DNA of 64,000 bases from positions 12,013-76,012 of the forward strand of contig JBEKAQ010000005.1 of assembly GCA_050015835.1 (NCBI GenBank), read 5' to 3'. Shown here one piece after another: positions 7,316-56,688 of the stretch (position 1 is its first letter; every line of letters starts with the position of its first letter). The translations under genes and the position numbers were made by a program. The DNA comes from Bryobacteraceae bacterium. Its GTDB lineage: Bacteria > Acidobacteriota > Terriglobia > Bryobacterales > Bryobacteraceae. Under the pieces are notes generated by a model. That model had not been told where the DNA came from. It saw only the letters and a program-made list of their open reading frames with translations, and made no database searches.

Positions 7316-7328
7316 AACAAGCAACCCC

Positions 7329-8282: not shown

Positions 8283-8292
8283 GCGTGCTAAG

Positions 8293-9270: not shown

Positions 9271-9315
9271 GTCGAAGCGTTGCGTTGGTATGAATTATGA
9301 GTCATACTTCAAAGT

Positions 9316-9546: not shown

Positions 9547-9554
9547 AAATCAAA

Positions 9555-39862: not shown

Positions 39863-39876
39863 AGTAGCCTTTCCGT

Positions 39877-40068: not shown

Positions 40069-40075
40069 TGTTACC

Positions 40076-40381
40076 TCAAAACGGGGCGCAATCGTCGCCC
40101 GCTACTTCCCCGCCAAGCAGTCGAACTTCTTTGTCCGAACAGGTGAAGAAAACTCGTAGTGCCGGTAGATCTGAAGTATTCACGGTTTTAGCCATAGAAA
40201 GATGCGTTCCAGGGAGCATCTCGAATTCCTCTGGAGAACGCGCCAACGCAAAAATCAAAGCTTCCATAACCTCATCGATACGCTTATAGGACACCTTCAG
40301 CGACTTCAGGAGATCTGTGAATTCCGGCTCCTCGCGAACCGTCCGTAGGTTAAGCGATGACAAGGTTATGGCTTTTCGCAA
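40076..40381 (-). CDS. hypothetical 101-aa protein, candidate toxin partner of the Panacea-domain gene
   Basis: TTG start overlapping the last 32 nt of the upstream DUF4065 gene. The C-terminal LPALRVFFTCSDKEVRLLGGEV resembles RelE/ParE-type terminal strands, but this is only an inference. Confidence 0.5.
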   Translation of the reverse strand: MRKAITLSSLNLRTVREEPEFTDLLKSLKVSYKRIDEVMEALIFALARSPEEFEMLPGTHLSMAKTVNTSDLPALRVFFTCSDKEVRLLGGEVAGDDCAPF

Positions 40382-40916: not shown

Positions 40917-41076
40917 TTTTGGTGTCCTCTCTTTCCATTATGGCGAAGAAAAGGAGAAGATCGCTACAACAGGAGAACGCAATTGCTTATTATGTTACAT
41001 CTATCCGCAGTGGAAAAGTGTGGGACCAGAAAGGATTTTAACGTTTCCCACGTAAAGGTTTACGATACGGAAGCTT

Positions 41077-42042: not shown

Positions 42043-42065
42043 GCTTTAATTATAGGGCTTGGAGC

Positions 42066-42090
42066 AACTTTAGTCAACTATATAATTGCC
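42066..42090. repeat. IS right terminal inverted repeat
   Basis: AACTTTAGTCAACTATATAATTGCC, the reverse complement of the left repeat apart from one G/A difference. Confidence 0.85.
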
Positions 42091-42098
42091 CTTCTTAG

Positions 42099-42446
42099 CC
42101 CTTTGGAGGTGGGCTTCCGGAACACCAGAGAATTGCCTTGAATTCGTTGAATGGTGGATGCCCGGAATAACCAGGCTGGCGCTTTCCGGGCGGCCAGCGC
42201 CAGGCTAAACGAAAGCGGCGACGGGGACTCCGCGACCTTCTATCTCCAGCAACTGTGATTCCTGCGCGCAAGTTTCCTGCCCGCAAGGTTCTGCCGGCAT
42301 CGGATGTTCCGGGGCTGAGCGGCACTTCGTACCCGGCTTCCTCTGCCTTCCTGAGTAGTTCTCCGTTTTCAGGTTCATGCCAGCCAATCCGCTCCAACGA
42401 CGAGATCAGGGAAGTCTTCGACGTGACGCTGGAGGAAGCGCCTCAT
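42099..42446 (-). pseudogene. decayed remnant of a small PIN-like (Mut7-C/DUF5615-type) gene
   Basis: Recognisable pieces lie in different minus-strand frames: RIGWHEPENGELLRKAEEAGYEV in one and RNIRCRQNLAGRKLA in another. An upstream ATG-initiated piece terminates after 23 codons. Confidence 0.35.
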
Positions 42447-44905: not shown

Positions 44906-44951
44906 ACCATTTTGATGATAGATCAGATCGCCGGTGGCTGCCAAAGTTAAC

Positions 44952-47498
44952 ATGCGCCGCTTCAATCAGTTAATCGCGATACTTCTGGCATCTGTCCTTA
45001 TCCTGCCGCCGGCGCCGCTTGACGCCAGGAATCGCAAGGGCGACAAGCTGCGCAATGAGGCGCGGACCGAAGAGATTAAGGGGAACTACGATCACGCCGT
45101 GGAACTGGCCGAGCAGGCCATGGCGATGGACCCCTCCGATCCGTCCTATGTGCTGCTGGTGCGTCGCCTCCGCTATGAGGCCGGCAACGCCCATGTAAAG
45201 AAGGGGCAGCAGGTTCGCGCCACCGGAAAACTGGAAGAGGCGCTGGCCGAGTTCGAGAAGGCGTATGGATACGACCCCGCGTCGGACGTCGCGATGCAGG
45301 AGATCAGGCGCACCCGGGAAATGATCGACCGTCAAAAGAATGGGGGAGTGGCCCCTCCCACCGTCGTCACGCCGGAAGACAGGAGAACGCTCACGCCGGC
45401 CCAACTCGCCCGCAAAGAAGAGCAGGTGCGGACCGATTCCCTGCTGCCGGTGCCCGAGCTGAAGCCTCTCAACAGCGACGTTATCGATCTCCGCATGAAT
45501 AACCAGAGGCCGCGCGTGATGTTCGAAACCGTGGGTAAGGTGGCGGGCATCAACGTCCTCTTCGACCCCGACTACGGTCAGGCGCAGACGCTGGCGGCCG
45601 TGAGTATCGATCTGAGCCGCACTACTCTCGAAGAGGCTCTGAATCAGCTGGCGGTCGTGACCAGGTCTTTCTGGAAGCCGCTGTCGCCCAACACGATTTT
45701 CGTCAGCGTCGACACCCCGGCCAAGCGGCTCGATTACGCGGAGCAGGAGGTTAAGGTTTTCTATCTGAGCAACGTGACTTCGCCGCAGGAGATGCAGGAG
45801 ATTCTGACTGTTATCCGAACCGTGGTCGACGTGCAGAAAGTTTTTAACTATACGGCGCAGAACGCGCTCGTGGTACGCACCGATGCCGATACGATGGCGC
45901 TGGTCGAAAAGCTGATTGCCGATCTGGACAAGCCGCGGCCCGAAGTGATCGTCGATGTGATGGTGATGGAGGTCAGCAGCAGCTATATGCGGAATCTGTC
46001 GGCCTCGTTCGCCCCCACCGGCATCACCACCAACGCGGTCTTCGCGCCCGGCGGCGTGGCGTCATCCTCAACCACAACAGGAACCACCACCACGGGAACT
46101 ACAACCACTACGGGAACCACCACCACGGGAACGACAGGTACAACCACCGGCACAACCGCGGCCTCCGCTCTGCAATTCAACCAGCTTGGACGCATTTCGA
46201 GCGCCGATTATTCGCTCACCAATCTTCCCGGGGCGCAGTTTGAAGCGGTGCTGAACGATTCGGCCACCCGTGTCCTGCAATCGCCGCAGATTCGAGCCGT
46301 CGATAACCAGAAGGCCAGTCTGAAGATCGGCACCAAGGTCCCGACCGCCAGCGGCAGCTTCCAGCCCGGCGTGGCGGGAGTGGGTGTCAGTCCGCTGGTG
46401 AACACGCAGTTTACCTATCTCGACGTGGGCGTGAACCTCGAGATTCTGCCCCGCGTGCATCAGAATAATGAGGTTTCCCTCCACGTCGATCTGGATGTTT
46501 CGCAGGTCAATAATTACCAGAATCTGGGCGGCATCAACATCCCCGAAATCGGCCAGAACCACGCGGTCGCCGATATTCGGCTGAACGACGGCGAGGTCAA
46601 CCTGATCGGCGGGATCATTCAGGACACCAACAGCCGTTCCACTACGGGTATTCCTGGGCTCGCCGCCATCCCGGTGATCGGCCGGTTGTTCAGTGCCGAG
46701 AATCTGGATAAAGAGAAGAATGAATTGGTAATCGCGATCGTTCCGCATGTGGTGCGCGGTATCGATATCACGGAAAGCAATCTCAAGGGCGTGATGTCGG
46801 GCAGTTCCCGGCAGATCCGGGTGGAGTACGCTCCGCACCGGGCCGTTGCGCCATTGCAATCGCCAGGCCAGGCGCAGGCCGATACCACTGCTATGCCCGG
46901 GAACGCCATGCCCGGAAGCGCCCCTGTGGGTCCGCCGGCAACTGCCCCGCCCATGACCGCTCCGCCCACGACCACGCCGCCCCCTGCCACAGCTCCGCCC
47001 GCTGCCGTGGCGCAGCCCCCCGCCACAGCTCCGCCGGTTAACGCGCCCGCCACGCGCGGCGGTCCCGCTCGCATCAGTTTCCTGCCGGGAAGCAGCGTCG
47101 ACACCCAATTGAGCCAGACGGTAAATATCACGATTTATGCCGAAAATACGACCAACCTGGCATCGGCGGCGGCGCATCTGCAATACGACCCGAAAATTCT
47201 TCGCATCAACGACGTTGCCGCCGCCGATCTGCTGCAGAAGAACGGCGCGCCATTGCAGCCCTCGAAGAACATTTTGAACGATTCGGGCCGGGCCGACGTC
47301 AGCGTCAGCCGGGGGCCGAAGGACGCAGGCGTCTCCGGTTCCGGAGGATTGTTCACCGTCGTCTTCCAGGCGGTGGGGCGCGGCAATACGTCGGTAACGG
47401 TCTCCGGCGTGACCCTGACCGCGGCGAGCGGCGGCGCAGGCCCCGGCCCACGCATCGATTCGACCATGCCGCCCGTACTCAACGTGAACGTCAGATAG
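44952..47498 (+). CDS. type II/III secretion system secretin-family protein with a TPR-like N-terminus, Thr-rich insert and C-terminal cohesin-like domain
   Basis: Signal peptide and a helical repeat region. Secretin N-domain block VVRTDADTMALVEKLIADLDKPRPEV and secretin core IPGLAAIPVIGRLFS...ELVIAIVPHVV. Then a Pro/Ala linker and the tail ISFLPGSS...LQYDPKILRINDV. Confidence 0.85.
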   Translation: MRRFNQLIAILLASVLILPPAPLDARNRKGDKLRNEARTEEIKGNYDHAVELAEQAMAMDPSDPSYVLLVRRLRYEAGNAHVKKGQQVRATGKLEEALAEFEKAYGYDPASDVAMQEIRRTREMIDRQKNGGVAPPTVVTPEDRRTLTPAQLARKEEQVRTDSLLPVPELKPLNSDVIDLRMNNQRPRVMFETVGKVAGINVLFDPDYGQAQTLAAVSIDLSRTTLEEALNQLAVVTRSFWKPLSPNTIFVSVDTPAKRLDYAEQEVKVFYLSNVTSPQEMQEILTVIRTVVDVQKVFNYTAQNALVVRTDADTMALVEKLIADLDKPRPEVIVDVMVMEVSSSYMRNLSASFAPTGITTNAVFAPGGVASSSTTTGTTTTGTTTTTGTTTTGTTGTTTGTTAASALQFNQLGRISSADYSLTNLPGAQFEAVLNDSATRVLQSPQIRAVDNQKASLKIGTKVPTASGSFQPGVAGVGVSPLVNTQFTYLDVGVNLEILPRVHQNNEVSLHVDLDVSQVNNYQNLGGINIPEIGQNHAVADIRLNDGEVNLIGGIIQDTNSRSTTGIPGLAAIPVIGRLFSAENLDKEKNELVIAIVPHVVRGIDITESNLKGVMSGSSRQIRVEYAPHRAVAPLQSPGQAQADTTAMPGNAMPGSAPVGPPATAPPMTAPPTTTPPPATAPPAAVAQPPATAPPVNAPATRGGPARISFLPGSSVDTQLSQTVNITIYAENTTNLASAAAHLQYDPKILRINDVAAADLLQKNGAPLQPSKNILNDSGRADVSVSRGPKDAGVSGSGGLFTVVFQAVGRGNTSVTVSGVTLTAASGGAGPGPRIDSTMPPVLNVNVR

Positions 47499-47515: not shown

Positions 47516-48004
47516 ATGATCCGCCGGAAATTTCAACGCCAACGACAGAGCGGTATGACGCTGGTCGAGCTGATTGTGGCTTTCACCATCCTGATGGTGC
47601 TCACTACCATGGCCGTGCCGCTGGCGCGCAACAACGTCAAACGCATGCGTGAGCGCGATCTGCGCCTGGCGCTGAGAGAGATCCACACCGCCATCGATAA
47701 ATATAAGGACGCGGTCGATGCCAACAAGCTGGGGCTCGACGCCAGCGGCCCCGACACATTCGGTTATCCGAAGACGCTCCAATCGCTCGTCGACGGCGTG
47801 AAAGGCGCGGGCACCGGCGCCGATACGAAGATCAAGTTTCTGCGCAGGATTCCCCTCGACCCCATGACCAATACGCGCGAATGGGGCGTGCGCAGCATGC
47901 AGGACGATCCGAAGAGCACCGGCTGGGGCGGGCAGAATGTCTTCGACGTGTACACCAAAAGCGACCAGAAAGACGCCAGTGGAACGCCTTACTCCGAGTG
48001 GTAG
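47516..48004 (+). CDS. GspG-like pseudopilin (prepilin-type N-terminal cleavage/methylation domain)
   Basis: Leader MIRRKFQRQRQSG followed by MTLVELIVAFTILMVL. The C-terminus is ...GTPYSEW. Confidence 0.8.
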   Translation: MIRRKFQRQRQSGMTLVELIVAFTILMVLTTMAVPLARNNVKRMRERDLRLALREIHTAIDKYKDAVDANKLGLDASGPDTFGYPKTLQSLVDGVKGAGTGADTKIKFLRRIPLDPMTNTREWGVRSMQDDPKSTGWGGQNVFDVYTKSDQKDASGTPYSEW

Positions 48005-48035
48005 AGCGGGCTTATCCCGTATAAACCGGCGCGGC

Positions 48036-48428
48036 TTGAGCAGAAGGAGCTTCGGCTTCACGCTCATCGAGATGATGATCGTGATGGCGATCATCGTGAT
48101 CCTGATCTCCGTCGCCATCCCCTTCTACCAAAAGGCCCTCATCCGCGCGAAAGAAAGCGTGCTCCGCAACAATCTGTTCGCCATGCGCAGCGCCATCGAC
48201 GAATACACGTACGACAAACAGAAGGCGCCGCAGAATTTGCAGGATATGGTGACCAACGGTTACCTGCGCGAAGTTCCGCGCGATCCCATCACCGGCAGCA
48301 ACGACACCTGGAAAATCATCATGGAAGATTCCGGACAAGCGGTGAACTCCACCGAGCCGGGCATCTTCGACGTGCGCAGCGGCGCCACCGGTAAGAGCCT
48401 CGAAGGAACTCTGTACTCGGACTGGTGA
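48036..48428 (+). CDS. GspG-like pseudopilin (prepilin-type N-terminal cleavage/methylation domain)
   Basis: G/FTLIEMMIVMAIIVIL methylation motif and a REVPRDPITG block. The C-terminus is ...GTLYSDW. The start is placed at TTG 48036, downstream of the first pseudopilin stop. Confidence 0.8.
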   Translation: MSRRSFGFTLIEMMIVMAIIVILISVAIPFYQKALIRAKESVLRNNLFAMRSAIDEYTYDKQKAPQNLQDMVTNGYLREVPRDPITGSNDTWKIIMEDSGQAVNSTEPGIFDVRSGATGKSLEGTLYSDW

Positions 48429-48499
48429 CAGAAGCGGCCCCGCCTTCCGGAGATAAAGAAAAAACCATAGCCCCGTACCATTCGGGTAGAATTCCATCT

Positions 48500-50614
48500 A
48501 TGGACTTCCTACGACATGGCCGCGGCCGCAAGTCTTACTATTACCGTCTTTTTTCAGCCACCGGCCTTTTCTTATTTCTTTCTCTGAGCGCTTTTGCCCA
48601 GACGTGCACCCTCACGGCAACTCAGAACATTGTGCATGCCGAAGGCCTCGCGGAACCTATGGGCAACATCGCGGTAACCTGCAGCGGCGGAACGATTGGC
48701 GCCACGGTGTCGGCAACCATTGCCATTAATCTCAATACCAATGTCACCAATCGCCTCGACCTGAACGGCAATCCGCTGGGAATCACCGCGGCTGTAAACG
48801 CAACGCCGGTAACCGCCTCGGCAACCCTGACTTCCGCCACCAGCGTCAGCGTCTCAGCGATACAATACACCGTCTCCGGTGCCGCGACCGTGGTGACGGT
48901 TGGCGGAATCGTGGCTGATGTCGCCGCAGTGACGCCGCTCGCCGGCATCTATCCCGTTACCGCGACGATCACGGTCGAAACCAACGGCTTCCTGGTAGCC
49001 ACCGGGTCGCAGACAGTCGCTTCCGGCTCGCCTTCACTGCTTTCGTCAGTCATCAACCGGGGCGTTCCCTGTAACGGATCCGCGGTGCCGGCTTCGCTCG
49101 ATTTCAATACGGTTCTGGCGACCGATCCCTCGTCCACGATCCGGCTGACCGAGGCTTACATGTCCTCCTTTTCCGCTAAGGCGCCCGGCGCCGACGCCGG
49201 TTTTCGAATTATCGTGAATATCTCCGGCTACGGTCCGAACGCTCAACTCTATGTGCCCGACACAATCGTGGGCAGCACCGGCGCGCAGCCCACCTCGGAC
49301 GGATCCTTTGCCACTGTTCCCGGCCCCGGATCTTACACCGCTCCGGGCCAACTGCTTCTGATCCTGGTTACGGGAGCCGACGCCACGGGCGCGGGCGGGA
49401 CGATGATCGCGGGCCAGCCATCCACCTCGATGACTGCCCTTACCATGTCCAACGGCTCGACTTACGTGGTATATGAAGTGGCCGACAGCAATCCCGACGT
49501 CATTGAATCCGCGCAGCTGCCGATTTTCGTCTCTGTACCCCTGTCCTCCTGCCCCAGCATGTACATCCCGCGATTCAGCGAGATGCCGGCGCCCGTGTCG
49601 ACCGTATCGACAGCCGGCCCCACCGCTCCGATCCCTCGCTTCGTCGCCACTCAGGCGGCGTCGGATTGCCTACAGGAGGGCGATTGCTCAGTCGCCTATT
49701 ATCCCGCGCTCTCGGTGAACCAGACAGCCATTAATCTCACTGGCCTTTCCCTCGGCGGCGATCAGACCGCTTCCGTGCAGGCTACCAATAACGGACAGGG
49801 GATCCTCCCGTTCACAACGTCGATCACCTATCAATCCGGCGCCGGCTGGTTATCGGTAACTCCGTCGAGCGGCGCGACGAGCACCCTGCCCGTGCAACTA
49901 CAGGTGGTTGCGAATCCGAGCCAGTTAGCCCAGGGTACCTACACCGCGACCCTCACCATCAGCGCAGGGAACTACGGAACCGCCTCCATCCCGGTAACGT
50001 TTACGGTGGGTCCCGTGGGAGTCACCATCCAGAACGTCGGCAATGCCGCTTCTTACCAATACGGCACGGTGGCGCCGGGGTCGTACGCCGTCATTTTCGG
50101 GCTCAATCTGGCAGGCGCATCGGTGACCTTCAACAGCCTGCCCGCCACCATAATTTATAACAGCGCCTCGCAGATCAACCTGATCGTGCCCGCGCAACTC
50201 GGCCAGATGCAGGGCGCGATCGTTTCCGCTTCGGTGAACGGCATGCTGAGCAACCCATTTCAGGTGACTTTGGTTGCCAACGCCCCCGGCATCTTCACTC
50301 CGGGGATCGTGAACCTTTCGAACGCCACCATTAACGGTGCGGGCCAGCCCGCCAGCCGGGGAAGCAACATCAGCGTTTATCTGACCGGGCTCAGTATCCC
50401 CCTTACCGGCCAGGTTACCGTCAATATCGGCAGTCAGAGCAACTTGATTCCTCTTTACGCCGGCGCTCAACCCACCTATCCCGCCCTCGATCAGGTGAAC
50501 GTCACCGTTCCTGCGTCCTTGCCGGCGACCGGTACCGTGCCGCTTCAGGTCTGCATTCCCGGAACCACAGGGCAGCCGGTCTGCTCCAACACGGTGAGTC
50601 TTTATGTCCAGTAG
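48500..50614 (+). CDS. large secreted beta-rich protein with a Solibacter-type C-terminal domain
   Basis: Signal peptide ...FLFLSLSAFAQ and Thr/Ser/Ala/Gly-rich repeats. The last ~200 aa (IQNVGNAASYQ...YAGAQPTYPALDQVNVTVP...) parallel the C-terminus of the 31311-33893 protease. Confidence 0.75.
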   Translation: MDFLRHGRGRKSYYYRLFSATGLFLFLSLSAFAQTCTLTATQNIVHAEGLAEPMGNIAVTCSGGTIGATVSATIAINLNTNVTNRLDLNGNPLGITAAVNATPVTASATLTSATSVSVSAIQYTVSGAATVVTVGGIVADVAAVTPLAGIYPVTATITVETNGFLVATGSQTVASGSPSLLSSVINRGVPCNGSAVPASLDFNTVLATDPSSTIRLTEAYMSSFSAKAPGADAGFRIIVNISGYGPNAQLYVPDTIVGSTGAQPTSDGSFATVPGPGSYTAPGQLLLILVTGADATGAGGTMIAGQPSTSMTALTMSNGSTYVVYEVADSNPDVIESAQLPIFVSVPLSSCPSMYIPRFSEMPAPVSTVSTAGPTAPIPRFVATQAASDCLQEGDCSVAYYPALSVNQTAINLTGLSLGGDQTASVQATNNGQGILPFTTSITYQSGAGWLSVTPSSGATSTLPVQLQVVANPSQLAQGTYTATLTISAGNYGTASIPVTFTVGPVGVTIQNVGNAASYQYGTVAPGSYAVIFGLNLAGASVTFNSLPATIIYNSASQINLIVPAQLGQMQGAIVSASVNGMLSNPFQVTLVANAPGIFTPGIVNLSNATINGAGQPASRGSNISVYLTGLSIPLTGQVTVNIGSQSNLIPLYAGAQPTYPALDQVNVTVPASLPATGTVPLQVCIPGTTGQPVCSNTVSLYVQ

Positions 50615-50619
50615 ATTTG

Positions 50620-50648
50620 GGACGGGCGCTTCCGCCTGTCCAATTTTT
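50620..50648 (+). terminator. intrinsic terminator-like hairpin with a T-run
   Basis: GGACGGGCG-CTTC-CGCCTGTCC (9-bp stem with one G-T pair) followed by AATTTTT. It lies 5 nt after the stop of the 48500-50614 gene. Confidence 0.6.
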
Positions 50649-50703
50649 CATCGCGGCGGAGGCGCCCTCCCACATGAAAACCCGTTCATCTCAGCCGGGG
50701 AAA

Positions 50704-50731
50704 CTTGCAGGATCGCCCGGAACGCTATAAT
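50704..50731 (+). promoter_or_regulatory. candidate sigma70-type promoter
   Basis: CTTGCA, a 16-nt spacer, then TATAAT (exact -10 at 50726-50731). Confidence 0.35.
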
Positions 50732-50778
50732 ATAGGCGAATTGAGGACCAGTGAGGTCGTTTCAGGTGCGTAAAGTGC

Positions 50779-50807
50779 TTGACACTCCGCCCTCGAATGA
50801 GATATCA
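50779..50807 (+). promoter_or_regulatory. candidate sigma70-type promoter
   Basis: TTGACA (exact -35 at 50779-50784), a 17-nt spacer, then ATATCA. It would give a ~240-nt leader for the 51053 gene. Confidence 0.35.
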
Positions 50808-51052
50808 ATGTTCTTGCTCTGATTTTTCGTTCTTGCTTTTGGGTAGTGGGCACGCCATTTACACATAAAATCGCCCTCACCCGCCGAGTTGTACCGCCTT
50901 TGCCGACCGCTTCAGGAAAGCAGGCGCGTCTTTACTCCGCCCGACACGGAGAAGTTCCCAAAGGTTGTACTAAAGTATTTCGCTGTAGTTGAGGCTCAGG
51001 TTGTACGAGAACTTCGACCGATTCAATTCAAGGAAATTCACAAGGAGAAGCA

Positions 51053-52804
51053 ATGGCAAATTTCAGCAGTAAAGTTCTTGGCCTTTTCGGCGCCGCGATG
51101 TTATTCGCGGGAATGTCGTACGGTCAAACCCTTACGTTCAATCCGCAGACCCCGCAGGGGGAAGGAATCATCATTGATCGGTTCGAAGACACCACCGCGC
51201 TGGTTGGCGACGGGTTCTTCGTGGTCGGTGCCTCGGGCAACCCCACGGCGGTAGTGAATGCGACCGTCACCGTGACGCTCAATGAGCCCGTTACAAGCCA
51301 AACATTCAGCAGCGGAAAGTATTCCGAAGTGCTCTTAAATGTGGGCGCGACCGCCAGCGCAACGGGCCTGAACAACGGCGCGACTCTTTACGCCGGTGTG
51401 GTGAGCGGCAGCACTATCACCTTTACCGGCGTTAACATTCCCGCCGACACGAACGTGGCCGTCCAGAACGTTCGCGTCAATGCGAGCCTCGCCCCGAGTG
51501 GCACGTCAAGTTTCGCTATCACCGAAACAATGACCATCACCACGGCTGGCTTTCTGAATTACTCGAACCTGGGCACGCCGCTTCAGGTTGGCGTCGTCCA
51601 AACGGGTTTTAGCGTGCCCAAGCTTTCGGCGACCAACGCAAATGGCGCTCCCTTCCTTCCTGCCAACCCCGCGATTTACTATATTTGCACCGGGAACCCC
51701 CCGAGCAGCGCCGCCAACCCCATTCTCTCGTTTTCGATCGCCGAAACACAGAATTTTAGTGGAGCCTTCAAGGTTCAGGCATCCGCAGGGCAGGTGACAC
51801 TGTCGGACCAGGGTTCCAACGTGAACCCGGCTGCGATCACCCTCAATAACGGCACCGTCCAGAATGGTGCTGGCGCTAACGCCGCTATCGGCGCGGCGAC
51901 GCACGGCGATCGCTGGCAGGTTGTCTTCTCGAACGTTCCGAGCGGGGTCACCATCTACCTTCCGCTTACTATCGTAGGGACCGCACTCGGCGGGGGCGGC
52001 AACCTTACCCTGACCCTTGGCACCCAAGGTGCTACGGGTGCCCAGAAGCTCGCCACGGCCACCAACCCCAAGCCCGCCGGCGGAGCTTGGGCCGGTCCTA
52101 ACGTTGCCCCATACACCCCCAGCGGCAACGGCACGATCACCGCGTGGTACGACGTAGCGACTTCCGATAACGTCACTGCCAACTTATCCTTCGCTGTGGT
52201 GGGTTACGTTTACGCCGCCGCAGGGTTTTCAACCAGCCCGACCCCCGCGATCACGGCCAGCCTGACGCCGGCTCCGACCACGGGGAGCGACATCCCAACG
52301 TTTGCCAACCAGAACTATCCGACCCTCACCCTGAATGCTTTCGCGGCTTGCGCCACCGACCTGCTGTTCCCGTTTGTCAGCAGCGCAGGCTTTGACACCG
52401 GTATCGCCATCTCCAACACCGGTACCGATCCGCTCGGTTCTGCCGGTGCGGGAACCGGCGCTCCCGGCGGCTGCACCTTGAACTTCTACGGCAGCGTTTC
52501 CGGCGGCGGCACAGTTCCTGGCCCCACGGCGGCGCCCTTCCTGCAGGGACCGCAGCTCGGCGTGCTTCCGTCGCCGGCGGCCCCCAACTACACCGGTACG
52601 TTCCTGCTCAGCAGCGTCGTCCCGAACTTCACCGGCTACATCATTGCGCAGTGCAACTTCCTCTATGGACATGGCTTTGCGTATATCGATTACGGTGGAC
52701 TCGGAGCGCCGACCAGTACCGCTCTCGGATACCTGGCGCAAGTCCTGAATCCTGGTCGCGGCGCGGCGGAAGCTGCGGCTGGCTTCGAATCGACCGGGAA
52801 CTAG
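51053..52804 (+). CDS. secreted protein of unknown family, paralog A
   Basis: AAGGAG Shine-Dalgarno 5 nt before the ATG and a Sec-type signal peptide (...LFAGMSYGQ). Thr/Ser/Asn/Gly/Ala-rich, with no TM helix. Blocks shared with paralog B: IIIDRFEDTTALVGD, GFDTGIAI.NTG, YIIAQCNFLY.HGFAY. Confidence 0.8.
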   Translation: MANFSSKVLGLFGAAMLFAGMSYGQTLTFNPQTPQGEGIIIDRFEDTTALVGDGFFVVGASGNPTAVVNATVTVTLNEPVTSQTFSSGKYSEVLLNVGATASATGLNNGATLYAGVVSGSTITFTGVNIPADTNVAVQNVRVNASLAPSGTSSFAITETMTITTAGFLNYSNLGTPLQVGVVQTGFSVPKLSATNANGAPFLPANPAIYYICTGNPPSSAANPILSFSIAETQNFSGAFKVQASAGQVTLSDQGSNVNPAAITLNNGTVQNGAGANAAIGAATHGDRWQVVFSNVPSGVTIYLPLTIVGTALGGGGNLTLTLGTQGATGAQKLATATNPKPAGGAWAGPNVAPYTPSGNGTITAWYDVATSDNVTANLSFAVVGYVYAAAGFSTSPTPAITASLTPAPTTGSDIPTFANQNYPTLTLNAFAACATDLLFPFVSSAGFDTGIAISNTGTDPLGSAGAGTGAPGGCTLNFYGSVSGGGTVPGPTAAPFLQGPQLGVLPSPAAPNYTGTFLLSSVVPNFTGYIIAQCNFLYGHGFAYIDYGGLGAPTSTALGYLAQVLNPGRGAAEAAAGFESTGN

Positions 52805-52833
52805 TTACCTGTTCCAGACCTGTTAATCGCAAT

Positions 52834-52867
52834 GAGAAGAGGGGGCATAACCATGCTCCCTCTTCTC
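52834..52867 (+). terminator. hairpin between the two paralogs (possible attenuating terminator)
   Basis: GAGAAGAGGG (52834-52843) pairs perfectly with CCCTCTTCTC (52858-52867) around a 14-nt loop. There is no clear T-run. Confidence 0.4.
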
Positions 52868-52912
52868 GCATTTCACCTCTTCATAACGGCATAAGTTAAA
52901 TCACAAAGCAAT

Positions 52913-52946
52913 CCTGGAGCGCCACAAAGCCTGGAGCGCCACAAAG
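52913..52946. repeat. 2 x 17-bp perfect tandem duplication
   Basis: CCTGGAGCGCCACAAAG occurs twice in a row, ending 9 nt before ATG 52956 and abutting the GGGGGA Shine-Dalgarno. Confidence 0.85.
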
Positions 52947-52955
52947 GGGGATCCG

Positions 52956-54611
52956 ATGACATGTTCTGGTAGAATCGTTCATCTGTTAGGGGGAGCGGTA
53001 TTGTTTGCCGCCATGTCCTTTGGTCAGACCCTTAACTTCGGTGTGCCGACGGTACCCGGGGGTATCATCATTGATCGTTTTGAGGACACCACCGCTCTGG
53101 TCGGCGATCTGGTTTTGACCTCGCCCGGTGGGCTGCCAGCCATCGCCAATGCGACTGTCATGATCGCACTCAACGAGCCGGTAGCGAGTCAGGTGCTGAC
53201 CCTCGGAGGCGCTACTCTCTCCGATGCGCTGCTGAATCTTAACGATACGACTGTCCCGGGGTCCTCCGCGGTGTACGCCGGAGCCGTTAACGGCTCCACC
53301 ATCACATTTTCGAGCGTTGCCCTCCCAGCCAACGATAACTACACAATTACTTTCCAGAATATTCGCGTGAATGCGCACGCCGCGCCGAGCAGCAATGGCT
53401 TTGCCATCACGGAGGGTGTTGTCATAACCAGCGAGGGCTTTCTGAACTATGCTTCCCCGAGCGCGGTCCAGGTCGGCATTGTGGAACAGGGCTTCTCGGT
53501 CCCCGCTCTGACAGCCGGCACTAATGTCCTCCCTTATACCACCTGCGTCGGCAACCCCACTACGGCGATAGACGGTACCACGAACACGTATTCATTCCAG
53601 ATAACGGTCAAAGAACTGTTCAACGCGGCCTTTAAGACGAAGACTACCGGTGGTACCTGTGGTGGCATTTCACCCTGCCAGGTAACGGCTGCGGAACAAG
53701 GTTCGAATACCACCAGCACCACGGTCGTGCAGGGCACCAACGCCCTGATTGGTCAAGCCACCCACGGTACCCGCTTCCAGCTTTCTTTTGCGAACGTTCC
53801 CCAGAACGTCACCATTTATCTGCCGTTGACTCTGGCGAATGCGGGCAACACTCTGGTCCTCACCCTTACCGGCACGGCCACAGGCATTATCTCTCCCGTT
53901 GCCGCAGGCACCCCGGCGGGATGGCTCGGGGCTCCTTCGGCCCCGTACCGCGGCAGCTCCAATGGCACGGTCACTGCGTTTTATGAAGTCACCACGGCCG
54001 ATAACACCGTTTCAAACCTGTCGTTCAACGCATACGGTTATGTGACCGCGCCGCCTGGATTCACCACGGCTCCAACCGCGCCCATTATGGTCACCATCGT
54101 ACCGGCTCCCGTGGCCGGCGCCGGCGTTACGGACATTCCCGCTTTCGCCCCCTCGACCAACCCCGTACTCACGCTGAACATGTTCTCCATCTGCCAGACC
54201 GTGCTGCTGTTCCCGTATGTTTCGAACGAACTGGGTTTTGATACCGGCATAGCCATCGCCAACACGGGCGTTGACCCGTTTGGCACGCTCGGGGCGCAGG
54301 GTGGCTCGCCGGGCACGTGTACGCTCAGCTTTTACGGAACGGGTGCGCCCTATCCCAATGTCGCGGTACCGCCGCCGGCGCCGTTCCCCGCCCAATTGCA
54401 GCCGGGAACCGCGGCAGCCTTTTTATTGAGTCAGGTGGCTATCGGCTTCCAGGGCTATATCATCGCGCAGTGTAACTTCCTCTACGCACATGGCTTCGCC
54501 TACCTGTCGGATGAGCCGGGGCGCGTCTCCCTGCCCTACCTGGCAAGCGTGATTCCCCCTGATCGCGCCGCGGCGGAGGCCGCGAACAACTTCGAATCGC
54601 TGGGGAACTGA
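52956..54611 (+). CDS. secreted protein of unknown family, paralog B
   Basis: Signal peptide ...LFAAMSFGQ. Collinear with paralog A, and both C-termini end in ...ES.GN. Confidence 0.8.
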   Translation: MTCSGRIVHLLGGAVLFAAMSFGQTLNFGVPTVPGGIIIDRFEDTTALVGDLVLTSPGGLPAIANATVMIALNEPVASQVLTLGGATLSDALLNLNDTTVPGSSAVYAGAVNGSTITFSSVALPANDNYTITFQNIRVNAHAAPSSNGFAITEGVVITSEGFLNYASPSAVQVGIVEQGFSVPALTAGTNVLPYTTCVGNPTTAIDGTTNTYSFQITVKELFNAAFKTKTTGGTCGGISPCQVTAAEQGSNTTSTTVVQGTNALIGQATHGTRFQLSFANVPQNVTIYLPLTLANAGNTLVLTLTGTATGIISPVAAGTPAGWLGAPSAPYRGSSNGTVTAFYEVTTADNTVSNLSFNAYGYVTAPPGFTTAPTAPIMVTIVPAPVAGAGVTDIPAFAPSTNPVLTLNMFSICQTVLLFPYVSNELGFDTGIAIANTGVDPFGTLGAQGGSPGTCTLSFYGTGAPYPNVAVPPPAPFPAQLQPGTAAAFLLSQVAIGFQGYIIAQCNFLYAHGFAYLSDEPGRVSLPYLASVIPPDRAAAEAANNFESLGN

Positions 54612-54619: not shown

Positions 54620-55408
54620 CTATTGCGTGCGCACCTGAACGTCGAATTGAATGTTCAGCGGCGCGGCAAAGAGATGAACGGTCGAGGCGATCGCCGCTCC
54701 CGGCCTGGCCTCCATCTTCACTTCCGTCGTTTTTCCGCCCTCCACGTGAGTGGCGCCGATCGAGACGGTCAGACCCGGAATATTTCTCGACAGGTCGTCC
54801 ATCGTTATATCGATCGGGCCAGGCAACTCGTTGCTGATCGTCACCGTTTGAACCGGCGCATTGGGTGTAAGAACTACCGCTGTGCGGTCGATTTTCACTT
54901 TGGTGCGCAGTGACGCCACGCTCGGCTGAGCTGCCTGCATCGACGCCAGGTCGGGGGACGTACCCGAAGTTCCCGGATGCATGGTTCCAAACGGGGTTTC
55001 GCTGAGACTCACCGGGTCCATGTAAAACATCCACTCCCCGTTCTCCAGCTTCCACGTGCTCTTCACGGGTATTTCGAACTCCTGCAGGCCCGCGCCGATC
55101 ATCATGATTCGTGCTTTCGCCCGGACCACCACTTTCGCCTTCTGGCCCCCATCGGTAAATTCGATACTCGCGATATGGAACTCGCTGAGGTCCGGCTTTT
55201 TGGCAACGTAGTAACTGTCCTTGGAATCCTCCGCGACCAGTTCCTCCGCCTGCCGGTAAGCCTTCGTCGACGTGCGGCCCTCTACTAACAACGAGTAGAA
55301 CTTGCCGATCCGCTCGCGAAGCCGGCTCTCGGCCTCCGCGGAGACCGGACTTGTCGTCTGCGCCCATGCCGTCACCGCCAAAGATGCGAATAAGAGCCAT
55401 CGAACCAT
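54620..55408 (-). CDS. secreted hypothetical protein
   Basis: Signal peptide MVRWLLFASLAVTAWAQ. No family recognised. Confidence 0.55.
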   Translation of the reverse strand: MVRWLLFASLAVTAWAQTTSPVSAEAESRLRERIGKFYSLLVEGRTSTKAYRQAEELVAEDSKDSYYVAKKPDLSEFHIASIEFTDGGQKAKVVVRAKARIMMIGAGLQEFEIPVKSTWKLENGEWMFYMDPVSLSETPFGTMHPGTSGTSPDLASMQAAQPSVASLRTKVKIDRTAVVLTPNAPVQTVTISNELPGPIDITMDDLSRNIPGLTVSIGATHVEGGKTTEVKMEARPGAAIASTVHLFAAPLNIQFDVQVRTQ

Positions 55409-55713
55409 GTACTCATGATAATGCAGGAAGCCGTGTCGCACTCCTGTAACAGGAGGCTTTCACGGGTAGGCAGTCTTGCCGGATCGCGGAAGACTCCTGA
55501 GATTATTCAGCGGCATCGGCTGCGTCAAGAGCCGGAAAGGCGAAGAGGACGCAGCCGAAGAAATCTCCAAGTTTCGGCTCCACGCCCGATCTGGTGCGCT
55601 TTCGCCGGGAACCGCGCGGTGACGAGCATTTCGTGCTGCCGGGACGCCTCTCCGCAGCGCCGCATCCGGCCTGCGGCCGCCGAGCCCGACCAGCGCCCGT
55701 TATACTCGTTGCG

Positions 55714-56688
55714 ATGGCGGCACTGGTCGATCCCGTTACGCGAGGCCCCGAGATCGTCGATCTCCGCAGGCTGGGGGCGCGCGAACTCGATCCTCTGCTG
55801 CTCGAGGAAACAGCCGAGTGGGAGCAGGAACTCGACTGGGACTTCACGAAATCGGCCGATCTCGTCCGCCATTATGCCGATCAGCGCGCTCTCGCCGGCG
55901 CCGCCCTGATGGATCGCGGCGAAGTTGCCGGCTACGGCTACGCGGTTCTCGAAGAGCATAAGGGGCTGATCGGCGACGTCTATGTGCGGCCCGGCTGGCG
56001 CGAGCGCGATGCCGAAATCCGTCTCTTCAGAACCCTGCTCGACAGCCTGATCGCGACCCCGCAGGTGCGCCGCATCGAGAGCCAGTTGATGCTGGTCGAG
56101 GGGCCTGCCGCCAAAGCCCTGCAACGCGAACGCTTCGTCCGCCTGTTTGAAAGGTTGCTCATGAGAATCGACGCTTCCACCGCGTTGCCACCCGCTCGAA
56201 ATCCCGCGGTGAACCGCTTCCGCATCGAACCCTGGCAGGATCATCATCACGACGCGGCCGCCAGCGTCATATCCCTGGCCTACGACTCCCATATCGACTC
56301 CCAGATCAACGACCAGTACAGAACTTTTGCCGGCGCCCACCGTTTTCTTGGGAACATCGTTCAGTTTCCCGGCTGCGGCACGTTTTACCGGCCCGCTTCC
56401 CTGGTCGCATTCGACCGGGCGACGGGCTGGATGGCCGGTATCGTTCTCTCCAGCTTTGTCTCCGACGAAGCCGCTCACGTCACCCAACTCTGCGTGACCC
56501 CCCTCGGCAAAAGGAAAGGACTGGGATACGAGTTGCTCCGTCAATCGGCGGGGGCGCTGCACGCGGCCGGAGCCAGACGCATCAGCCTCACCGCGACCAC
56601 CGCCAATAAAGAAGCCGTCGACCTGTATCTGCGTTGCGGCTTCACTGAGGTGCGCCGCTTCTTCGCTTACGTTTGGGAAGGCTACTGA
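55714..56688 (+). CDS. GNAT-family N-acetyltransferase (two GNAT-like halves)
   Basis: The C-terminal half has an acetyl-CoA-binding pattern (LCVTPLGKRKGLGYELL...ANKEAVDLYLRCGF). The start is taken at MAALVDP. Confidence 0.7.
   Translation: MAALVDPVTRGPEIVDLRRLGARELDPLLLEETAEWEQELDWDFTKSADLVRHYADQRALAGAALMDRGEVAGYGYAVLEEHKGLIGDVYVRPGWRERDAEIRLFRTLLDSLIATPQVRRIESQLMLVEGPAAKALQRERFVRLFERLLMRIDASTALPPARNPAVNRFRIEPWQDHHHDAAASVISLAYDSHIDSQINDQYRTFAGAHRFLGNIVQFPGCGTFYRPASLVAFDRATGWMAGIVLSSFVSDEAAHVTQLCVTPLGKRKGLGYELLRQSAGALHAAGARRISLTATTANKEAVDLYLRCGFTEVRRFFAYVWEGY

Follow-up and report, generated by a model that had tools for sequence, protein, structure and literature searches.

An unnamed secreted protein family of Bryobacterales with a conserved structured leader RNA and a neighboring secretin/pseudopilin cluster

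Two adjacent genes of a Bryobacteraceae MAG, here called A and B, encode secreted proteins directly downstream of genes for a secretin and two pseudopilins, and the question is what kind of product this locus makes. A sequence-only reading of the window, meaning the whole 64,000-nucleotide stretch of DNA that was analyzed, had proposed that A and B are candidate subunits of a highly expressed surface array or fiber. The features used to assess this proposal are collected in Table 1.

Table 1. Positions of genes, predicted signals, and RNA elements in the window
Feature	Position	Strand	Description
Secretin	44934..47498	+	854 aa; first gene of conserved cluster
Pseudopilin 1	47516..48004	+	162 aa; prepilin N-terminal methylation motif; Pfam N_methyl, E = 2e-7
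Pseudopilin 2	47937..48428	+	163-aa ORF; Pfam N_methyl at residues 36-60
Third paralog	48425..50614	+	729-aa ORF; start probably Met27, position 48503
Terminator-like hairpin and T-run	50620..50641	+	9-bp stem, 7 GC pairs, tail AATTTTTCAT; terminator scan
Inverted repeat ATGAA-N6-TTCAT	50674..50689	+	14 nt upstream of P1 -35; by eye
Predicted promoter P1	50704..50731	+	CTTGCA-16-TATAAT; read from sequence
Predicted promoter P2	50779..50808	+	TTGACA-18-TATCAA(T); sequence conservation
Structured 5' leader	50815..51052	+	about 240 nt, counted from inferred P2 start
Leader hairpin S1	50841-50851 and 50873-50882 (arms)	+	A-rich loop
Leader hairpin S2	50896-50925	+	hexaloop GCUUCA at 50909-50914
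Leader hairpin S3	50935-50951	+	CUCCG-CCCGACA-CGGAG; invariant
Leader invariant blocks	50991-51003; 51009-51026	+	GAGGCUCAGGUUG; GAACUUCGACCGAUUCAA
Shine-Dalgarno of gene A	51042-51047		AAGGAG
Gene A	51053..52804	+	583 aa; ORF call; NCBI "hypothetical protein" ABSB15_02655
Gene A signal peptide	residues 1-25		
Intergenic hairpin	52834..52867	+	15-bp stem, one G-U: GAGAAGAGGGGGCAU, loop AACC, AUGCUCCCUCUUCUC
Tandem duplication	52913..52946	+	17-bp unit CCTGGAGCGCCACAAAG x2, just upstream of gene B Shine-Dalgarno; by eye
Gene B	52956..54611	+	551 aa; paralog of A; ORF call
Convergent neighbor	54620..55441	-	273 aa; signal peptide; 21% charged residues

The two genes are adjacent collinear paralogs, as had been claimed. 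Their products align over the full length with 47% identity (BLASTP, E = 2e-132), and the shared blocks quoted earlier are all found (IIIDRFEDTTALVGD, GFDTGIAI.NTG, C.L.FYG, and YIIAQCNFLY.HGFAY). The alignment also pairs four cysteines (positions 212, 433, 474, and 534 of A with 197, 413, 455, and 506 of B), of which C474 and C534 are invariant throughout the family and C212 and C433 reach at least 90% conservation (A numbering), a pattern that is compatible with disulfide bonds formed outside the cytoplasm. The shared ES.GN ending reads FESTGN in A and FESLGN in B, and the Glu at position -5 from the C-terminus is nearly invariant across the family. By eye, both N-termini look like Sec signal peptides of the signal peptidase I type, ending SYG/Q and SFG/Q; the public annotation starts gene B 29 codons late (P0013, 522 aa), so that its signal peptide is lost. 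The view that these are not outer membrane barrels also stands, given that neither protein ends in an aromatic residue and that the AlphaFold model has neither a TM helix nor a barrel.

A and B belong to an unnamed secreted family that is nearly confined to the soil Acidobacteria order Bryobacterales. This family comprises 4,252 clusters at 50% identity with E <= 1e-3 (1,472 with E <= 1e-30), and every member is annotated as "hypothetical." Almost all of the 256 genome loci that carry it belong to Bryobacterales, including the cultured Paludibaculum fermentans, and some genomes have more than one locus. Neither A nor B has a sequence match in Pfam, NCBIfam, or PDB, and both remain outside any described family. 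Charged residues account for 3.8 to 7.4% of family proteins (about 5%) versus 18 to 33% of the other window proteins compared, which include the secretin, the pseudopilins, and the 273-aa neighbor. The simple composition reported previously is likewise evident: A and B have a pI of about 4.3 and contain 14% A, 13% G, 12.5% T, and about 7.5% each of V, S, and N. Such an extreme composition would suit an extracellular polymer with a structural role, not an enzyme. Family domains also recur in giant, obviously extracellular proteins that carry DUF11, BACON, He_PIG, FG-GAP, Big, and cohesin/dockerin modules, and these shared domains, together with the secretory signals, support the secreted nature of A and B.

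The AlphaFold model of gene A (pLDDT 83, pTM 0.82) has three all-beta regions (roughly residues 29-183, 190-410, and 425-565), followed by a short C-terminal helix and then the ESTGN tail. Each family protein is confidently predicted to be a chain of beta-sandwich domains. The Foldseek search that had been suggested for this protein yielded no specific structural relative, only generic Ig-like chains such as those of integrin legs, Gram-positive pilins, and adhesins, with TM-scores of <=0.2 that reflect Ig-like folds only.

These matches bear on the alternative that survives best, which is that A and B are secreted adhesins, polymer-binding proteins, or biofilm-matrix proteins that leave by the same secretin and act singly, with no ordered array or fiber. 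Their targets would be plant or microbial polysaccharides or mineral surfaces. We consider this possible but doubtful. The MSCRAMM-type adhesins ClfA/B, SdrG, FnBPA, and Srr1 are among the best Foldseek matches, and five invariant polar residues of the C-domain (D459, T449, T456, Y529, and H540) could make a binding site. A neighboring paralog carries BACON_2, and relatives join family domains to modules (BACON, He_PIG, FG-GAP, Big, and cohesin/dockerin) of the kind that adhesins and glycan-binding proteins typically have. Adhesins could also be encoded at several loci of one genome, unlike the single S-layer gene. However, the structural scores indicate only an Ig-like fold, no ligand is pointed to, and the low charge, the high-output unit, and the dedicated leader (see below) better suit a bulk structural product.

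The genes upstream indicate a possible route of export. The secretin carries TPR repeats at its N-terminus and a cohesin-like domain at its C-terminus, together with Secretin_N and Secretin domains, a Thr-rich tract, and a Pro/Ala-rich linker (Pfam Secretin, E = 5e-38; Cohesin, E = 1e-5; plus Secretin_N and TPR), and its matches to NCBIfam GspD/PilQ fall under the equivalog cut-offs. Pseudopilin 1 has a weak GspG-like NCBIfam match and its gene is kept in synteny. Pseudopilin 2 matches TIGR02532, with a GspG/PilA-type N-terminus, and its true start is probably ~20 codons further 3' because a G/FTLIE prepilin cleavage site lies at residues 39-44; its orthologs have 137 to 142 aa. The ORF between this gene and A, which the sequence-only reading had missed as a relative, encodes a third paralog with 5.8% charged residues. 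It retains the N-terminal two-domain family module (hhalign to the family profile: Prob 97%, E = 7e-11, 329 columns), and BACON_2 (Pfam, E = 7e-8) and TIGR03437 Soli_cterm (NCBIfam, E = 1e-31) replace the family C-domain.

The position of A and B immediately downstream of the secretin and pseudopilin genes is shared by their relatives, and the linkage of family and secretin, whose co-occurrence had been proposed as a check, is evolutionarily conserved. The secretin has the same position in loci L001, L004, L007, L009, and L011, and in the loci compared, the family gene is the last member after the secretin, two pseudopilins, and a BACON-domain paralog. The synteny from secretin to family gene is kept down to 30% protein identity (30 to 35%), and in the distant relative L011, the family gene follows a complete type II secretion operon, GspK-L-M-D. 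The cluster in the window has no ATPase or platform gene, and thus export would need components encoded elsewhere. The convergent 273-aa neighbor, which has no Pfam or PDB match and is probably periplasmic, keeps its place and orientation in L001, L004, L007, and L009 (36 to 66% identity).

Strict co-location with a secretin across the order could instead mean that A and B are not cargo but periplasmic or outer-membrane-associated components that belong to the secretin machine or to some other envelope structure. The absence of an ATPase and platform protein from the cluster and of any recognizable export signal beyond Sec would agree with this, yet we judge it unlikely. A component of the machine would hardly require a separate unit with tandem promoters, its own leader, and a very strong terminator. 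Moreover, a charge of ~5% versus 18 to 28% in the secretin, pseudopilins, and 273-aa neighbor points to a different compartment, and family domains are found in giant proteins that are clearly extracellular.

A terminator-like hairpin that is conserved in L001 closes the upstream operon, and gene A therefore has its own transcription unit. The gap reported as ~440 bp measures 438 bp and is only relatively AT-rich (GC 0.516 versus 0.61 for the window). The two predicted sigma70 promoters placed in it are conserved in orthologous loci: both P1 hexamers in L001, L004, L007, and L009, and the P2 TTGACA with a TAT(C/G)AAT-like -10 in window-type loci, L011, and nearly all metagenome relatives. However, P2 is better read with the spacing given in Table 1 than as TTGACA-17-ATATCA. 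A consensus promoter scan called neither P1 nor P2, the latter because the T6 rule was unmet. The inverted repeat upstream of P1, which recurs in L001, L004, L007, and L009 with no more than one mismatch, is a candidate regulator-binding site. The strong Shine-Dalgarno sequence noted before is invariant in all relatives, and in most of these, the family gene is a self-contained unit with promoters, leader, Shine-Dalgarno, and terminator.

The leader and the family are linked almost one-to-one. Of 80 genome loci searched with nhmmer, 64 have one leader copy directly 5' of the family gene, and in the reverse direction, 71 of 73 metagenome ORFs that follow the S3 motif belong to the family. Over 45 lineages, nucleotide identity reaches 74% in the leader, compared with 51% in the coding sequence and 40% at third codon positions, with 46 of 126 leader columns at least 95% conserved. 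For S1 and S2, 88% of cells are paired versus 32 to 41% in slid controls, two-sided changes number 131 cells versus 21 to 41, and the observed values were reached by none of 500 shuffles; S1 also has compensatory changes within the window-type clade. On this conservation and covariation, the leader is a previously undescribed conserved structured RNA, more than a spacer, and it has no match in Rfam. Taken whole, the leader has no folding advantage over shuffled sequence (z = +0.5), and S3 never varies among relatives, so that a mechanism for the leader is argued from conservation alone. These properties are not visible from the window by itself.

The transcription unit seems built for high output, as had been suggested, with conserved tandem promoters, the invariant Shine-Dalgarno, and a very strong terminator in relatives; the codon bias of A (Nc 41) and B (Nc 48) is unremarkable, inside the window range of 38 to 48. 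In 17 of 18 long relatives, the consensus terminator, AGAGGGGAGC-UUCG-GCUCCCCUCU with U7-9 behind it, comes 20 to 45 nt past the stop. Many public contigs span just the family transcription unit, and 43 of 61 complete-ORF metagenome contigs end 1 to 33 nt past the stop, just before the terminator hairpin. Such ends are as expected of mRNA-derived assemblies, which are a candidate explanation. P2 is included in many of these transcript-like contigs, and their 5' ends are thus not P2 start sites.

The hairpin between A and B, described earlier as a perfect 10-bp stem, is in fact longer and imperfect (Table 1). It folds better than expected (z = -3.0), has a compensatory G-C to U-A change in L001, and is homologous to the strong intrinsic terminator of the family, with a decayed U-tract. 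It probably serves as a leaky terminator or 3' stabilizer, with A made in excess over B. Gene B has no leader copy (nhmmer, window) or promoter of its own, and it is probably cotranscribed with A by read-through. The A-B tandem is also found in L001 and L012, and the 17-bp unit ahead of B is single copy in L001.

To express a major subunit above a minor one, operons classically place a hairpin between the two paralogs, and A and B might accordingly be major and minor subunits of a fiber or pilus-like structure joined by beta-strand exchange. Their composition, few charges, and conserved Cys resemble those of the chaperone-usher pilins FimA and PapA, and the pilins LpfD, FimG, EbpB/C, and LrpA are among the weak Foldseek matches. 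Nevertheless, this explanation is improbable. No chaperone, usher, or sortase gene and no LPXTG signal was found in the cluster (Pfam/NCBIfam, relative loci), most lineages have a single family gene rather than a pair, proteins of 550 to 700 aa with three domains are far larger than strand-exchange pilins, and the Foldseek probabilities and TM-scores are low. That A and B are enzymes or transport proteins of an unrecognized type is very improbable: a handful of polar residues are invariant (E45 and S82 as well as D459, H540, and Y529; family alignment, A numbering), but a beta-sandwich chain with no catalytic-domain match, no barrel, and no membrane segment argues otherwise, and a match to an enzyme or transporter profile, named beforehand as contrary evidence, was absent from Pfam, NCBIfam, and PDB.

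The reading that we favor, with belief and doubt about evenly balanced, is that A and B are structural proteins of the cell surface or the extracellular space, made in abundance and exported via a T2SS-like system. The proteins would cross the inner membrane via Sec, fold in the periplasm, and be pushed over the outer membrane by the adjacent secretin and pseudopilins, and large amounts would gather on the cell or around it to form a layer (array, sheath, or matrix) that protects or adheres. The leader would set the level of production: S1, which lies about 26 nt from the inferred start at P2, probably stabilizes the mRNA, whereas a trans-acting factor that adjusts translation probably binds S3 and the invariant single-stranded blocks near the Shine-Dalgarno. 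In the source genome, a tandem duplication would have given rise to B, which would be made by read-through of the old terminator that lost its U-tract, at a lower level than A.

Comparison with S-layers reveals both differences and likenesses. The family has four conserved Cys, whereas S-layer proteins usually lack Cys, and no surface-anchoring module (SLH or LPS-binding repeat) was found in the family. S-layer genes are known for promoters that are strong and for mRNAs of unusual stability (PMC8056022). The S-layer gene vapA of Aeromonas hydrophila directly follows the genes of a dedicated T2SS, spsE-M and spsD (PMC4413209). This Sps-VapA system is the nearest analogue of the secretin cluster and the A and B genes.

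Genes A and B, which encode secreted proteins of 583 and 551 amino acids, respectively, are collinear paralogs that share 47% identity from end to end (BLASTP, E = 2e-132). This relationship was described in an earlier sequence-only reading of the same DNA, and its details hold. All of the motifs it quoted are found in the two proteins, each Cys of A aligns with one of B to form four shared positions, and the common C-terminus reads FES(T/L)GN. Likewise, the Sec-type signals that were proposed have the charge, hydrophobic core, and small -3/-1 residues of signal-peptidase I substrates, with predicted cleavage between MANFSSKVLGLFGAAMLFAGMSYG and Q in A and between MTCSGRIVHLLGGAVLFAAMSFG and Q in B. 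N-termini of this type are also predicted for more than 60 relatives. A Bryobacteraceae metagenome-assembled genome contains the identical protein A, annotated as “hypothetical protein” (ABSB15_02655). The public record of B (ABSB15_02660) has 522 aa because its start was placed 29 codons after the ATG that we use; this start costs the protein a signal peptide that aligns with that of A and is therefore probably mis-called.

The family formed by these proteins and their relatives had been called undescribed, and our searches agree, as no enzyme or transporter profile was hit in Pfam, NCBIfam, or the PDB. Specifically, neither A nor B matched any Pfam or NCBIfam model at E <= 0.1, including SLH or other anchoring domains, and both single-sequence and profile queries of the PDB returned only a chance match (E = 1.4). 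A word-indexed search recovered 232 relatives, nearly all 520-600 aa in length, and none of these 232 carries a Pfam domain or an informative name. A profile built from 58 of these relatives (A1) was then searched against 1.84 billion cluster representatives, of which 4,252 matched with E <= 1e-3 and 1,472 even with E <= 1e-30. A scan of one genome per species located 256 family loci. Almost all of the 80 loci listed among these are from Bryobacterales (Bryobacteraceae and Solibacteraceae), and they include the cultured species Paludibaculum fermentans and a Candidatus Solibacter usitatus genome, whose orthologs are again annotated as “hypothetical protein.”

Positions of the features discussed in the text, counted along the window
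Feature	Position	Strand	Remark
Low-GC island	39600-42100		between LPG_synthase_TM and M17 peptidase genes
SocA/Panacea antitoxin-like gene	40350-40916	-	in island
IS1595-family transposase gene	41077-42042	-	in island
Secretin gene	44934-47498		5' of A; TPR repeats and C-terminal cohesin-like domain
Thr/Gly run of secretin	46035-46130		about 35 residues
Pro/Ala-rich linker of secretin	46850-47100		before cohesin-like domain
Pseudopilin gene	47516-48004		5' of A
Pseudopilin gene	47937-48428		5' of A
729-aa protein gene	48425-50614	+	BACON_2 and Solibacter TIGR03437 (Soli_cterm); Pfam/NCBIfam
Probable start of 729-aa protein	48503		Met27
Terminator-like hairpin	50620-50641		after upstream gene; terminator scan
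Inverted repeat ATGAA-N6-TTCAT	50674-50689		gap alignment
Candidate promoter P1, CTTGCA-16 nt-TATAAT	50704-50731		gap alignment
Candidate promoter P2, TTGACA-18 nt-TATCAA	50779-50808		gap alignment
Leader hairpin S1, arms	50841-50851 and 50873-50882
Leader hairpin S2	50896-50925
Leader hairpin S3	50935-50951
Invariant leader blocks	50991-51003 and 51009-51026
Shine-Dalgarno of A	51042-51047
Gene A	51053-52804	+	ORF, 583 aa
Hairpin between A and B	52834-52867
Tandem copies of 17-bp unit	52913-52946		just 5' of B ribosome-binding site
Gene B	52956-54611	+	ORF, 551 aa
Codons of B before public start	52956-53042
273-aa secreted protein gene	54620-55441	-	converges on B
GNAT-gene ORF	55594-56688	+
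Sub-threshold M23 RNA match	55627-55682	-	opposite 5' end of GNAT-gene ORF

The position of A and B directly downstream of a secretin/pseudopilin cluster is not peculiar to this genome. A secretin gene and pseudopilin genes lie 5' of the family gene in every locus examined. Furthermore, a common gene order is kept in four related loci (L001, L004, L007, and L009) whose family proteins are 30-57% identical to A: smpB on the opposite strand, the secretin, two pseudopilins, a paralog with a BACON domain, a protein of ~1,265 aa in some lineages, the family gene, and a protein of ~260 aa on the opposite strand. In a more distant locus (L011), the family gene follows a complete GspK/PilN-type/GspM/GspD operon. 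The BACON paralog of the window is the 729-aa protein, and profile-profile comparison (hhalign) reveals that it contains the N-terminal two-domain module of the family (probability 97%, E = 7e-11, 329 columns). Therefore, the cluster encodes three paralogs rather than the tandem pair that was originally noticed; the pair itself is present as described. The 729-aa ORF probably begins at Met27 because its signal peptide begins there. A and B differ from proteins with TIGR03437 in that they lack this element and carry a family-specific C-terminal domain. The A-B tandem is limited to the closest relatives (L001 and L012), and other lineages carry one copy.

Several neighboring features deserve mention. 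The secretin combines N-terminal TPR repeats, a Thr/Gly run (SSSTTTGTTTTGTTTTTG...), a long Pro/Ala-rich linker, and a cohesin-like domain, and this unusual architecture is seen again in related loci (L007). Many lineages encode a protein of ~1,265-1,300 aa, with faint LGFP and Big_1 matches, whose gene separates the family gene from the BACON paralog or the secretin (L004, L005, L009, L010 at ~5800-9600, and L011 at 5726-9628); this protein is missing from the window and may be a further cargo or an anchor. Its membership in the family as another paralog was ruled out by hhalign. The gene for the 273-aa secreted protein converges on B, and only 8 nt, without a terminator, separate the two stop codons. 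The protein has no Pfam or PDB relative. It may be part of the same system because its position is constant in all related loci examined.

A confident AlphaFold2 model of A built with the family alignment (pLDDT 83, pTM 0.82) predicts a signal helix, three all-beta regions (residues ~29-183, 190-410, and 425-565), and a short C-terminal helix. When the full model was compared with the PDB using Foldseek, only generic chains of Ig-like sandwiches were matched (integrin alpha legs, Gram-positive pilins, MSCRAMM adhesins, and LpfD), with TM-scores of at most 0.2. The C-terminal domain modeled separately (pLDDT 73) has as its best match Thermotoga maritima TM1070 (1NC7; probability 1.0, target TM-score 0.62-0.65, rmsd 3.9 A, 13% sequence identity), a protein of no known function that is therefore uninformative regarding role. 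Neither the models of A and its C-terminal domain nor their Foldseek matches in the PDB point to an enzyme-like or barrel-like fold. The earlier exclusion of a beta-barrel outer-membrane protein is upheld in that the model is a sandwich chain and both A and B end in Asn; a few relatives do have a C-terminal aromatic residue (F or Y), unlike A and B.

Family domains also appear in other proteins, where the C-terminal domain occurs in 4-6 copies and the N-terminal module in as many as three. Giant proteins of this kind also carry DUF11, BACON, He_PIG, FG-GAP, Big_3_5, and cohesin/dockerin domains, and these partners identify them as extracellular surface proteins.

The composition of the mature proteins is distinctive. 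Charged residues (D+E+K+R) account for only 5-6% of mature A and B, the pI is ~4.2-4.3, the GRAVY value is positive, and the predominant residues are A, G, T, S, N, and V. This low charge is a family trait: the charged fraction is 3.8-7.4% (mean 5.4%) among 58 aligned members, averages 6.7% in 62 leader-linked metagenome members, and is 5.8% in the 729-aa neighbor. The corresponding values are 18% for the secretin, 21% for the conserved 273-aa neighbor, 23-28% for the pseudopilins, and 22-33% for cytoplasmic proteins of the window. A composition like that of A and B would suit a structural protein that is very stable and is exposed to an acidic medium outside the cell, and it would argue against an enzyme or a part of a periplasmic machine.

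Gene A was said to lie behind an AT-rich gap with two near-consensus sigma70 promoters. The gap measures 438 bp and has a GC content of 0.516, compared to 0.61 for the window. When aligned with its equivalents from five related loci, the gap proved to be better conserved than the proteins. A terminator-like hairpin follows the upstream gene, and A therefore opens a new transcription unit. Both proposed promoters are kept in related loci, but neither was called by a consensus scan, and we accept P1 and P2 as candidates solely because they are conserved in orthologous loci. The counterpart of P2 in most metagenome relatives is TTGACA-N17-TATGAAT. Two other promoter types were considered for the conserved blocks of the leader. 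A sigma-54 promoter is rejected as GG and TTGC would need two more nucleotides between them, and an ECF promoter is rejected as only 8 nt separate GAACTT from TCAA.

The ~240 nt immediately upstream of A form a leader that is tightly linked to the family. When the 80 genome loci were searched with an HMM of the leader, 64 gave a single coding-strand match that stops at the start codon, and the rest of the 1.5 Mb searched gave none. For the reverse test, a 17-nt core (CTCCGCCCGACACGGAG) was used to match at least 120 metagenome stretches, and among the matches listed, 71 of 73 ORFs located 3' of the motif match the family profile. Conservation was then compared over 45 lineages as mean pairwise identity. 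The 3' 126 columns of the leader are 74% identical, with 46 columns at least 95% conserved, compared to 51% for coding nucleotides, 40% for third codon positions, and 32% for the family protein.

Three hairpins were written down from one sequence, and their pairs were then counted on a MAFFT alignment of 53 majority-type leaders (A10) that had not been fitted to any structure. In this leader type, S1 has an 11-bp stem with an A-rich loop and S2 has a 10-bp stem with a GCUUGG hexaloop, and each has 8 pairs that are changed on both sides. S3 is completely invariant (0 pairs changed), with a 5-bp stem and a CCCGACA loop. Across the whole structure, 88% of cells are paired and 131 cells are changed on both sides, compared to 32-41% and 21-41 cells, respectively, when partner columns are slid. 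These slid controls score 0.06-0.11 for covariation and the actual pairing scores 0.316, and none of 500 shuffles reached the observed covariation values. The leader type of the window has different S1 and S2 sequences with the same architecture, and compensatory changes in S1 are again seen in 23 leaders of this type. RNAalifold on pooled alignments returned S3 alone, or S3 with part of S2. MAFFT had misaligned the two leader types, and S1 and S2 were brought out by splitting the alignment by type and fixing the structure by hand. Given its 5' UTR position and its compensatory changes, the leader fits the description of a structured cis-regulatory RNA.

A further leader type that includes Paludibaculum (L035, L053, L079, L081, L088, and similar loci) lacks the CUCCG-CCCGACA-CGGAG hairpin and has GGAAUCCCGCGAGCACAG or GGAUCCCGAC at a similar place. 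It shares with the S3 type only a CCCG..CAC core and the 3' 70 nt. In P. fermentans itself, the invariant blocks beside the Shine-Dalgarno are present and S3 is absent.

The leader seems less likely to be a riboswitch because its overall folding energy is no better than that of shuffled sequences (z = +0.5) and its hairpins are separate, without a multi-stem junction. An alternative pairing between CUCC and the Shine-Dalgarno is predicted, although only invariant bases are involved, and the function of the gene points to no ligand. A translated upstream ORF is dismissed, as the frame contains TGA in one related locus (L004) and is broken by 1-nt indels in relatives. Regarding known RNAs, Rfam 15 yielded no match to the leader at E <= 1 and no match at gathering score anywhere in the window, and within Rfam the Acido-1 and Acido-Lenti-1 motifs do not match the leader. 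Weinberg et al. 2010 described two motifs that were not submitted to Rfam, Soil-1 and Solibacter-1, and the sequences of both differ from the leader (PMC2864571).

Gene ends also are informative. In 17 of 18 longer metagenome contigs, a very strong intrinsic terminator with a GC-rich stem of 10-12 bp, usually a UUCG loop, and a U run lies 20-45 nt past the stop codon of the family gene. In addition, 43 of 61 contigs with complete ORFs are only 2.0-2.6 kb long and end 1-33 nt past the stop codon, at a point that closely precedes the terminator hairpin or falls within its 5' arm. The 5' ends of these short contigs cluster ~218-246 nt before S3. An abundant monocistronic mRNA would be expected to yield such assemblies; the indication is indirect, and the contigs may be transcripts or DNA. 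Many of them include P2, and thus if they are transcripts, they must start at an upstream P1-like promoter. The conserved tandem promoters, the invariant Shine-Dalgarno, the strong terminator, and these transcript-length contigs indirectly suggest that the family gene may be highly expressed. Codon bias, used as a proxy for expression, is unremarkable and gave no signal.

A hairpin was also reported between A and B. It is present (z = -3.0) and is kept in L001 with a compensatory change, although its stem has 15 bp rather than 10 bp. The sequence (GAGAAGAGGGGGCAU...) resembles the stem of the family terminator, whose U-tract is U7-9 in single-gene relatives and here has decayed to GCAUUUCACCUCUUC. 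The hairpin is rejected as an intrinsic terminator on this ground, as the stem is there but the GCAUUUCACCUCUUC tail provides no direct U-tract. B has its own Shine-Dalgarno (GGGGGA), and neither the leader HMM nor the promoter scan of the window found a leader or a recognizable promoter for it. These features are consistent with a tandem duplication that would have created B; read-through from A may now yield it in smaller amounts than A itself. Near its ribosome-binding site, a 17-bp unit (CCTGGAGCGCCACAAAG) is perfectly duplicated in tandem; the closest relative (L001) has a single copy, and the duplication is specific to the window.

Two observations concern other parts of the window. A low-GC island (GC 0.49-0.54 versus 0.61) carries an IS1595-family transposase gene, a SocA/Panacea antitoxin-like gene, and small ORFs, and it is judged to be a recent mobile insertion because it is missing from the syntenic region of L001. 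A sub-threshold Rfam match to M23 RNA (30.8 bits versus a gathering score of 41.2, E = 0.0095) is most likely due to chance.

What was noticed in the sequence-only reading is real, and its functional label of surface-array or fibre subunits is a proposal. We consider it an even chance that the family represents an abundant structural protein of the Bryobacterales surface or extracellular matrix, dependent on both Sec and a type II secretion system (T2SS), whose production is governed by the newly recognized structured leader. The predicted Sec signal with four conserved Cys residues (periplasmic folding) and the linkage to T2SS genes are what would be expected of a type II secretion substrate. 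In this scheme, S1, which lies ~26 nt from the probable P2 start, could protect the mRNA, and S3 and the invariant single-stranded blocks beside the Shine-Dalgarno could be recognized by a trans-acting factor.

More specific classes suit these proteins less well. They might form a lattice, a sheath, or a fibre, or act as free adhesins. We do not file A and B as S-layer proteins because no anchoring module was found and any assembly into a lattice is hypothetical. Nor can they be filed as pilins or outer-membrane barrels; chaperone, usher, and sortase/LPXTG genes and fimbrial-type domains are absent from the window cluster and from five related loci, and the resemblance to pilins in fold is weak. 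It is unlikely that the family forms the main outer coat (S-layer or sheath) of Bryobacterales, exported by a dedicated minimal secretin-pseudopilin system, with the three-hairpin leader serving as a feedback device that matches synthesis to secretion or assembly. Feedback of this kind is exemplified by CsrA-FliW acting on flagellin and by SlpA autoregulating its own mRNA.

Bryobacterales ranks among the bacterial orders most often encountered in acidic soils and peat. To our knowledge, Acidobacteria are among the most abundant soil bacteria and their cell surface is almost unstudied; literature searches on an acidobacterial S-layer, envelope tomography, and a highly expressed Solibacter hypothetical protein returned nothing relevant. 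The family comprises thousands of metagenome sequence clusters and has no name, domain model, or structure, and genomic context marks it as a product to which a secretin system is dedicated. As the major surface or matrix protein, if that is its role, it would shape encounters with water stress, acidity, phages, predators, and soil particles, and soil metatranscriptomes and metaproteomes would contain it as a dominant acidobacterial signal, now filed as “hypothetical.” The leader covaries strongly, its sequence is conserved with unusual strictness, and it makes a clean candidate for a new class of cis-regulatory RNA. Cultured P. fermentans carries the gene, and the protein and its leader region are open to direct test in this species.

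Several known systems bear comparison with the leader. The E. coli ompA 5' UTR stabilizer is a stem-loop near the 5' end of the mRNA of a very highly expressed envelope gene. S-layer genes have strong promoters, and their mRNAs are reportedly 6-10 times more stable than average (PMC8056022). The leader resembles these leaders in its long 5' UTR, a stem-loop near the 5' end, and a strong Shine-Dalgarno downstream. However, three hairpins and ~50 nucleotides that are invariant across the order represent far more constraint than a stabilizing hairpin needs.

In Bacillus subtilis, the hag mRNA for flagellin, a structural protein secreted in massive amounts, is regulated by CsrA-FliW and has two similar GGA sites in its leader, one of which overlaps the Shine-Dalgarno, and the CsrA consensus is ACARGGA. 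The leader of A likewise has two near-identical GGA-containing elements, ACACGGAGAAG in S3 and ACAAGGAGAAG at the Shine-Dalgarno. Unlike in hag, the upstream GGA is in the S3 stem and not in a loop, the sites are ~100 nt apart, and Paludibaculum-type leaders do not have S3 as such. CsrA and FliW have been reported in some Acidobacteria (PMC4682653). The two elements resemble CsrA sites with an atypical geometry and provide only a lead.

At the protein level, the S-layer protein HPI from Deinococcus radiodurans is reported to be an immunoglobulin-like beta-sandwich chain that forms a hyperstable surface layer (PMC10120038). A is similarly predicted to be a chain of beta-sandwich domains, although HPI is not among the Foldseek matches of the family models.

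The nearest described arrangement is the sps-vapA locus of Aeromonas hydrophila and A. salmonicida. In A. hydrophila AH-1, spsE-M and the secretin gene spsD directly precede the S-layer gene vapA (PMC4413209). VapA is a Sec-dependent, acidic structural protein of ~50-60 kDa, as A and B are predicted to be, and such proteins are in both cases encoded directly 3' of a dedicated, secretin-containing T2SS-like cluster. The L011 locus has the Aeromonas order (GspK-L-M, secretin, and family gene). The differences are also clear. The window cluster consists of a secretin and two pseudopilins only, without E, F, K, L, or M genes, and its secretin has TPR and cohesin-like extensions. Moreover, large proteins (729 aa here and ~1,265 aa elsewhere) are encoded between the secretin and the family gene. 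VapA and the family proteins have no detectable sequence relationship, and a lattice has been demonstrated for VapA, whereas the family is known here from sequence and model. A structural surface protein with a dedicated secretin system is already known from Aeromonas, and what appears to be new is an unrelated, unnamed protein family that is paired with a novel cis-regulatory RNA.
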